This document shows, in pieces, positions 12,755 to 55,327 of a stretch of 64,000 nt of DNA. The DNA comes from Callorhinchus milii (Eukaryota). The stretch covers positions 15,128,001-15,192,000 of the forward strand of contig NW_024704751.1 in the NCBI RefSeq assembly GCF_018977255.1, given 5' to 3'. Below the pieces are notes generated by a model. The model was not told the origin of the DNA, did not search any database, and saw only the letters and a list, made by a program, of their open reading frames with translations. How positions within the stretch are numbered: the first letter of the stretch is position 1; each line of letters starts with the position of its first letter. The translations under genes were made by a program, and so were the position numbers.

Positions 12755-13045
<291 letters not shown>

Positions 13046-25484: not shown

Positions 25485-25845
25485 TTGGAGATGCCTTTCC
25501 TTCAGATGAGATGGAAACCTGAACGTCCACCCATTCGTCTGGATGTCAAAGAACTCGTCCCACTACTGCTAACGAGAAGGAGTTTTGTCCTTGCTGACAA
25601 TCCCAGTTAAGTTGGTTGTTTACCTCGACTGTTTGGGGGGCACTGCTGTGTGAAAATTCACCTGCAAATACACTTAACCGTGTCCTGACGAAGGGTCGTG
25701 GACCCGAAACGTTGACTCACTTTCCTTTCTCCATAGATGCTGCCTGACCAGAGACTTCTATTTTTCTTCTCACACTTAACTGTGAGTCGCTTTGAGGCAT
25801 TTCAGTGCATTAAGACGCTATATCAAATGCAGGAGCTGTTATTAT
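25485..25845 (+). mobile_element. DeuSINE body and tail, interrupted by a Penelope-type insert
   Basis: ttcagatgagatggaaacc...ggatgtcaaaga...cactgctgtgtg [insert] gtgagtcgctttgagg...gacgctatatcaaatgcagg. Confidence 0.75.
25683..25771 (+). mobile_element. Penelope-like element fragment with minimal hammerhead ribozyme motif
   Basis: cctgacgaagggtcgtggacccgaaacgttgac...tctccatagatgctgcctgacc, flanked by the direct repeat acacttaac(c/t)gtg at 25670-25682 and 25772-25784. Confidence 0.78.
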
Positions 25846-26203
25846 CTTTTAGACGTTTCCAATTGAAGATTCTTAGCGAAATTTTCTCTCCCCGAGCTTT
25901 CTTCAGTCTTGTGAAAGCAGAATAATGGATAGCCAAAGGTTACGGAATGAAAGAGCATTTTTATAGCATCTCATCATTTGGAAACATCCCAAAATACTTC
26001 GCAATGACACTGCCTTTTCGTAGGTGAGCGCTGAAGCCATTTTGCACTCAGCAAGATCGCCATAACAGCCGTGAAGCAAATGACTAACTTTATCAGTTGG
26101 ATTGTCAGCCAGGATAGCAGGAGAAACTGCCTTCTCTTTTCCGATAGGGTCACGGGATTGTTAGTGTTCACGGGAAGATGGGACCTTATACAATGCCACC
26201 GTT

Positions 26204-54864: not shown

Positions 54865-55008
54865 ACCAAGCTCAAGGTGGGGGTAGGGGAAAAAGAGCAG
54901 AAGAACATGGTCGGAGGAGATCAGAAAGATTGGGAGGCGCTAGGACGTGAAGGGAAAAGGATATAAAGCTGACTCACATAGCACTGATTATGCTGAGCCT
55001 AGACATTG

Positions 55009-55327
55009 ATAATAATAATCCTTGCATTTGGTATAGCGCTTTTCACGTCAGGAGGACGTCCCAAAGCGCTTCACAGAACACACTGTAAAGTGAATTGACT
55101 GTATATTTGTGGGCGAACGCGGCAGCCAATTGCGCACAGCAATGTCCCACAAACAGTCGTAGATTGAAAATGACCAATTTATTATTGTCTTTGGTTTTGG
55201 AGGATTATTATTAGGCTCTGTGTGGAGTAAGGAAACTTGCCCAAGGTTTCGCCCTCTGCCTGGAATTGAACTCAGGTCTCTCACTTGCAAAGCGAGTGCT
55301 CTAACCACTGAGCTACAGGACTCCACA
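55009..55327 (-). mobile_element. SINE family A with internal deletion
   Basis: Complete tail and head (…ctctaaccactgagctacaggactccaca); part of the CORE region is missing. Confidence 0.92.

Follow-up and report, generated by a model that had tools for sequence, protein, structure and literature searches.

The window analysed here, a stretch of DNA of 64 kb, contains on its minus strand a coding exon of a gene of the NKAIN family, the candidate first exon of which lies beyond the end of the window (Table 1). Since the second exon and the candidate first exon bracket it, the insert described below is located within intron 1 in antisense orientation to the gene; the preliminary description of the motif, which gave the gene as NKAIN1, had the same orientation. 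The insert is a solo pseudo-LTR (pLTR) lying in the tail of a SINE between two copies of a 13-bp repeat, and its 5' part carries a minimal type I hammerhead motif.

Table 1. Features of the insert, its hammerhead motif and its surroundings, in window coordinates
Feature	Position	Strand	Basis
Coding exon 2, NKAIN-family gene	12863-13024	-	
Candidate exon 1, NKAIN-family gene	~4.3 kb past window end	-	
Host SINE, portion 5' of insert, diverged (~70-85% to relatives)	25498-25682	+	
Left 13-bp target site duplication (TSD) copy, ACACTTAACCGTG	25670-25682	.	sequence; other runs; SINE copy comparison
Solo pLTR of EN+ Penelope-like element, 89 nt	25683-25771	+	family alignments
Minimal type I hammerhead motif	25682-25716	+	sequence; PMC4209133 features; pair counts
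Stem I, 3 bp	GTC 25682-25684 / GAC 25714-25716	+	
CTGACGA core box; unpaired A at 25692	25685-25691	+	
Stem II, 5 bp	GGGTC 25693-25697 / GACCC 25701-25705	+	
GAAA box	25706-25709	+	
ACGT palindrome (stem III position)	25709-25712	+	
GTT triplet	predicted cut 25713/25714	+	
14-nt internal deletion site, between short direct repeats	25747-25750	+	pairwise alignment vs L046
Right 13-bp TSD copy, ACACTTAACTGTG	25772-25784	.	sequence
Host SINE, 3' tail resuming past insert	25772-25850	+	SINE alignments

Family positions are numbered from C3 of the CUGA (25685 = 0). In this numbering the insert spans position -3 to the first of two 3' end sites of the family, and G25682, the last base of the left repeat, doubles as the first base of stem I and of the element. 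Alignment with a natural SINE copy places both halves of the host SINE on the two sides of the insert. The host, which we take to be a DeuSINE, belongs to a repeated SINE-like family. The window also contains a young SINE (approximately 54950-55300, minus strand), the head of which is tRNA-like and the tail of which it shares with the host SINE. The 13-mer, with up to 3 mismatches allowed, was looked for in 59 further copies of the host SINE (those anchored in the fetched loci and the window); it is present singly in 15 and doubled in none, which rules out that the flanking repeat is part of the SINE consensus. The repeat is therefore a genuine TSD and, with the SINE continuous around the insert, it bears out the earlier reading of a separate insertion event inside the SINE tail.

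The two repeats had been described as differing by one CpG-type change. This is true of the assembly but the change is polymorphic and not fixed, as position 25679 is T in three of four other runs (all from one study), where the TSD is perfect over 13/13 positions. In the same runs, positions 25769 (4/4) and 25760 (at least 3/4) are nearer to the family sequence than the assembly is. The right junction of the insert is bridged in 4/4 of these runs; the left junction is bridged in 1/4 by a 31-letter rule and by 28-29 letters in the remaining three. No empty allele is seen among the matches listed for these four runs, and a 152-nt skip with a 21-nt side in the run data is probably another SINE copy. 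The runs also differ from the assembly by a CA inserted after 25603 (4/4) and by one base missing at 25958 (2/4).

Hammerhead motif and covariation of stem II

The boxes, the 5-bp stem II, the ACGT palindrome and the GTC/GAC stem I of the preliminary description are all present, and every base of the hammerhead core is intact in the window copy. The motif agrees with the features of the minimal hammerheads (min-HHRs) given in PMC4209133. CUGANGA and GAAA boxes surround a paired stem II with an unpaired base after A9 and a G10.1-C11.1 pair, and the palindromic ACGU, the NUH triplet GUU and the closing stem I GUC/GAC are all present, so that the designation as a minimal type I hammerhead can be retained. 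Pair 2.1-1.1 is C-G in the window copy and U-G in the majority of the family.

Taken alone, the core boxes occur in the window at chance level (7 matches against 6.9, or 6.87, expected), and the folding energy of the 115-mer is no better than that of shuffles (z +0.5). In its lowest-energy fold the monomer pairs the core with the palindrome and does not adopt the hammerhead shape. Rfam hammerhead models give no match at E<=10, a negative of little weight, since min-HHRs are without stem III and are defined by RNAmotif descriptors. Although the Rfam check is negative, the motif is significant because of its family context: the 28-nt core pattern has 518 exact matches in genome G000 while its reversed control has 0, a looser core pattern has 1,544 matches against 12 in the control, and the 36 nt after the cut site have 1,570 exact matches against 0.

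The triplet GUU, in place of GUC, had been regarded as a sign of a weak or inactive copy. However, GUU is present in 88 of 90 consecutive core matches on contig C1; it is the state of the family, a consensus with GUC is not what the copies give, and decay of the triplet is ruled out. GUU is also among the cleavable or active NUH sites (PMC3138052). Minimal hammerheads of Penelope-like elements (PLEs) cleave weakly, as dimers, or together with the element protein (PMC4209133; PMC11167929; PMC6765202), and by analogy the ribozyme here would act only in the RNA of the parent element, as a dimer or assisted by protein. As no second hammerhead copy is present within the 64-kb window and the insert lies antisense in intron 1, the lone window copy is likely inert, which upholds its earlier description as probably weak or inactive. 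Dimer cleavage of minimal hammerheads was reportedly described by Lunse et al. 2017 (as cited in PMC6765202). The single insert is of little weight in itself, being one among at least 1,500 similar copies, intronic, antisense and with no partner ribozyme nearby.

Comparison of genomic copies reveals covariation in stem II. A sister PLE subfamily (L198-L208), with 393 exact pattern matches, has A-U in place of G10.1-C11.1, a pair that is usually conserved, and U-A at 2.1-1.1, with AUC, AUA or AUU as loop; U11.1 is present in 88 of the first 100 matches with A10.1. In an alignment of 58 copies, 10 of them taken from loci that had been selected for the A-type core, the pair at the base of stem II is G-C in 30, A-U in 12, G-U in 11 and other in 5, and the pair 2.1-1.1 is U-G in 40, U-A in 12, C-G in 4 and other in 2. 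Overall 90.5% of the cells are paired, a value reached by 2 of 500 shuffles. The compensatory change in stem II is one event between the two subfamilies.

Parent element and anatomy of the copies

Long copies continue upstream into an open reading frame (ORF) in which a reverse transcriptase (RT) with YIDD is joined through a CX4CxxC linker to a GIY-YIG domain bearing CCHH. The linker is seen in L021 and L164, and in L148 its first Cys is replaced. The Pfam GIY-YIG match (E 4e-4) is under the model cut-off and the Pfam RT model has no match in L148, L021 or two L166 frames; a 430-aa piece of the element gives an Atlas value of 0.97 to RVT_1/HTH_animal/GIY-YIG clusters. Twenty ORF-bearing stretches were fetched, two of which overlap. 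As read from coordinates, pLTR sequence lies downstream of the ORF match in 17 of the 19 distinct stretches (L162 is without pLTR and L154 is cut short), and a pLTR precedes the ORF start in L164, L169, L170, L185 and L194. No fully intact element is present among the 20 stretches, and the longest stop-free element frame is 470 aa. The main ORF apparently begins about 170 nt after the core. Within the pLTR, in the region from +52 onward, an upstream ORF of 37 codons begins (L169, L177, L190); it stops a little short of the probable main ATG near +170, and multiple pyrimidine-tract/AG acceptor-like sites are present in the same region.

The insert is almost certainly a solo pLTR of this abundant EN+ PLE with RT and C-terminal GIY-YIG, and the Penelope origin proposed earlier is confirmed in that its sequence is the terminal repeat of such an element. 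Judged by its motifs, the parent element would be of the Neptune/Nematis type in the sense of PMC8557442; a GIY-YIG bearing CCHH at the C-terminus and a linker CX2-5CxxC are what it has in common with these clades.

Anatomy of the copies was analysed in the first 90 of the 518 core matches, which are consecutive on contig C1. In 65 of the 90, similarity to the element ends no more than about 9 nt upstream of C3, most often at 3 nt; in the 25 long copies it extends to various points between 19 and 1000+ nt upstream. This split was made by eye, after the first alignments had been inspected. The 5' end almost at the ribozyme, first noticed in the window insert, is hence a trait of the whole family. 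The base of the element is kept in 63, 60 and 52 of the 65 short copies at -1, -2 and -3 and drops to 28, 28 and 13 at -4, -5 and -6, against a background of 0.2-0.3. A crude model based on the long copies expects 4% of ends within such an edge window. The sister subfamily has the same short 5' edge in 11/11 loci (10 independent; judged by eye). An apparent second 5' cluster at about -173 was traced to a repeat inside the reference and is artefactual.

A control sample was picked by the sequence 3' of the cut site (the first 30 of the 1,570 matches, 3 of them shared with the earlier samples and 2 being arms of a single insertion). Here 13 copies start at -9 to 0, 9 further upstream and 8 inside the core. 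None of these 30 copies, and none of 45 other arms, starts at the cleavage site. Because the copies retain the whole ribozyme and none of the 30 begins at the cut, cleaved RNA is not the usual template.

At the other side, 3' ends fall at +92 to +109 in 42 of the 90 copies, at +122 to +140 in 38 and elsewhere in 10. The two end sites are approximately 35 nt apart, which matches the known 30-40 bp tail of PLEs. A head-to-head inverted arm is present in 38 of the 65 short copies, and the inverted arms likewise terminate at -3/-4. A TSD of at least 10 bp flanks 37 of the 65 short copies (10/27 plain, 27/38 two-armed) against 1 of 216 mismatched control pairs; the strict search finds none in 17 of the 27 plain copies, and in the 10 plain copies that have one, it abuts the element within 0-8 nt. 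L185, which is ORF-bearing, starts at -4 and runs on into the ORF.

Several arrangements were observed beside these. In the head-to-head copies L064 and L104 the inverted arm reaches -3, and in L064 the arms are fused directly there. In L242, L059, L062 and L118 a pLTR starting at -3 to -6 is immediately preceded by an internal piece of the element (either its first 30-45 nt or the beginning of the ORF), which suggests template jumps following run-off. At least 10 PLE copies (L049, L052, L054, L056, L068, L077, L093, L098, L136, L156) are located in the tails of SINEs of the host family, often near a T/A-rich stretch or (ATT)n end; this location could be due to an ATT target preference or to the mere abundance of the SINE. 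Near-identical loci with common flanks (L153/L154, L207/L208, L173-L175, L176/L178/L179) are segmental or tandem duplications carrying pieces of the element.

The 89-mer had been described as a module retroposed as a unit of its own. However, it corresponds to the standard solo pLTR of about 103 nt (start at -3, first 3' site) minus 14 nt, and the same 14-nt deletion recurs in the ORF-linked copies L011 and L143/L160. To the question of the preliminary description, whether similarly bounded short copies with TSDs form a family, the answer is that such copies are abundant in the genome but do not make up a self-standing 89-bp family. As short and long copies share sub-variants, the short ones are best explained as side products of the autonomous element. 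It is quite improbable that the short unit is instead an independent non-autonomous element, SINE- or retrozyme-like, with masters of its own and moved in trans by the PLE protein. Such a unit would agree with the excess of short over long copies (65 vs 25), with their fixed ends and own TSDs, and with the report that non-LTR retrozymes are pLTR derivatives (bioRxiv 10.64898/2026.07.22.740005). The variants span both forms, however (GACTT in 32 short and 20 long copies, CTCTC in 22 and 3), the sister subfamily too has short and long forms, and the recurrence of the deletion in ORF-linked copies also argues against independence. Tandem hammerhead arrays, by which retrozymes are recognized, are found in none of the 90 copies, and the window holds a single copy. 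Moreover, the Anolis Poseidon element PAc requires ORF sequence downstream of its start sites (PMC11167929), and this is missing from the solo unit.

Origin of the sharp 5' edge

In the mechanism that we propose, the element protein would nick the target, and reverse transcription would be primed about 100 or 135 nt inside the uncleaved element RNA. Synthesis of cDNA would then run off the likely 5' end of the RNA at -3/-4, 3 nt before the core. One such cDNA would give a solo pLTR such as the window insert, two cDNAs would give head-to-head arms, and priming in the downstream pLTR of a tandem transcript would give the long truncated copies. Target-primed reverse transcription with internal initiation at two sites is likely by analogy with PAc (PMC11167929). 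For the window insert, an origin as a solo pLTR placed in the SINE tail by an internal start on uncleaved RNA and 5' run-off is probable, and the run-off step, judged from the positions of the ends, is favoured with moderate confidence.

That most copies start just before the ribozyme would follow if the element RNA likely begins there, and we infer from the edge that -3/-4 is the 5' end of this RNA. The CCAGTTC found at this place is initiator-like. The first bases of the element are re-copied directly before -3 in 3 clear (5 loose) cases of the 65, and in 2 of 650 control windows. Where a copy has both a pLTR reaching the 5' side of the ribozyme and the ORF start, 3 of 4 extend further upstream (-46, -133, -286); such copies fit tandem read-through and give no support for a start at -3.

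The edge might alternatively reflect a hot spot of stalling or template switching, where the RT meets the base of stem I on an RNA that extends further upstream, a reading that we consider unlikely. The edge falls exactly on the first base of stem I and 25 of the 90 copies pass it, both as expected of a stall. Copying passes through the 3' strand of stem I before it comes to the 5' strand, though, so the stem should no longer be closed when the edge is reached, and in the one copy that was folded the pyrimidine-rich upstream sequence shows little structure (centroid, z +0.5). The re-copied first bases before -3 also resemble the behaviour of an RT at the end of a template, as run-off would have it.

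A similarly low probability is assigned to the edge being cut by the GIY-YIG endonuclease of the element, or being the 3' end of a self-priming antisense template. The PAc enzyme cuts ATT in its own pLTR (PMC11167929), and the edge here reads GTT; antisense self-priming has been proposed for head-to-head PLE palindromes (PMC3846280), and 38 of the 65 short copies are of this head-to-head form. However, the 27 without an inverted arm have the same edge. In the head-to-head copies both outer ends coincide with the two tail sites, as would be expected if two sense-primed cDNAs had been made on the two nicked strands.

Run-off from an RNA starting at the edge has to be weighed against what is known in Drosophila. 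The start site of Penelope in D. virilis is separated by 46 bp from a downstream intron of 75 bp, the 3' end of which is at helix I (PMC2377424, PMC4209133). Transcription there starts about 120 nt before the ribozyme and not at its edge, and this counts against run-off. The D. virilis intron (PMC4209133) also lends itself to a reading of the edge as a 3' splice site (polypyrimidine tract, CAG|TTCTGA), with the short copies derived from spliced RNA. An acceptor-like sequence is present immediately upstream in the long copies. The base frequencies at -3 to -5 are like those of an exon end. Against this, the short copies have no upstream exon in common, matches being at background by -6, the TSDs of the 10 plain copies that have one lie 0-8 nt from the element, and a splice joint offers no cause for copying to stop. 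A spliced-exon origin of the edge is unsupported, since shared upstream sequence is lacking and TSDs abut the element, and we regard it as highly improbable.

Run-off from uncleaved RNA remains the preferred reading, and the family pattern, which bears on the role of hammerheads in PLEs, may be viewed as a fossil map. According to this map, Penelope RNA would start at stem I and be copied uncleaved, its commonest product being a strong-stop-like cDNA of 100/135 nt; we rate the chances of this as slightly better than even. If true, it would account for the very large number of minimal hammerheads found alone in animal genomes, and for long insertions coming only from tandem copies. The use of an uncleaved template agrees with the Anolis in vitro result (PMC11167929), and the sharp edge predicts a capped element RNA starting at -3/-4.

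Comparison with known systems

Published accounts already cover min-HHRs in pLTRs as well as pLTRs that are solo or inverted, tails and TSDs (PMC4209133, PMC3846280, PMC8557442). With the min-HHRs in metazoan PLE pLTRs (PMC4209133), the motif shares the core boxes, the unpaired base between 9 and 10.1, the G10.1-C11.1 pair, the palindromic 15.2-16.2, a short stem I and an occurrence mostly as dispersed single motifs from truncated PLEs. It differs from them in the 5-bp stem II, the stem I of 3-4 bp, the GUU triplet and, in the sister subfamily, the A-U pair at 10.1-11.1. A fixed 5' edge at stem I is not described for min-HHRs in the available part of PMC4209133, and no published description of it was found in the part of the literature covered, which makes this a weak negative.

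Insertions of EN+ PLEs (PMC3846280; PMC8557442) have the same head-to-head arms, optional tail of 30-40 bp, TSDs, partial tandems and solo pLTRs. Recombination or deletion was invoked there for several solo pLTRs that have no TSD. In the present family solo pLTRs predominate, carry TSDs of 10-19 bp, have a single 5' edge in common and are therefore insertion products.

Animal non-LTR retrozymes (bioRxiv 10.64898/2026.07.22.740005) are likewise non-coding, related to pLTRs and provided with a type I hammerhead. They consist of tandemly repeated units, each with its own ribozyme, and are cut at the cleavage site; the insert, unlike them, is present once, between TSDs, and starts 32 nt upstream of the cut.

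An experimental parallel to the origin proposed here is drawn from Anolis Poseidon PAc (PMC11167929). It has two internal RT start sites giving rise to the tail, and these, uncleaved RNA as main template, cutting of both strands and a hammerhead near the 5' region of the RNA would be alike in the two systems; a mapped point of 5' run-off is not given for PAc in the available part of PMC11167929. PAc belongs to a different clade, and the element here has an additional Zn-finger linker. The ORF of PAc starts in stem II, whereas that of the present element seems to start about 170 nt after the core.
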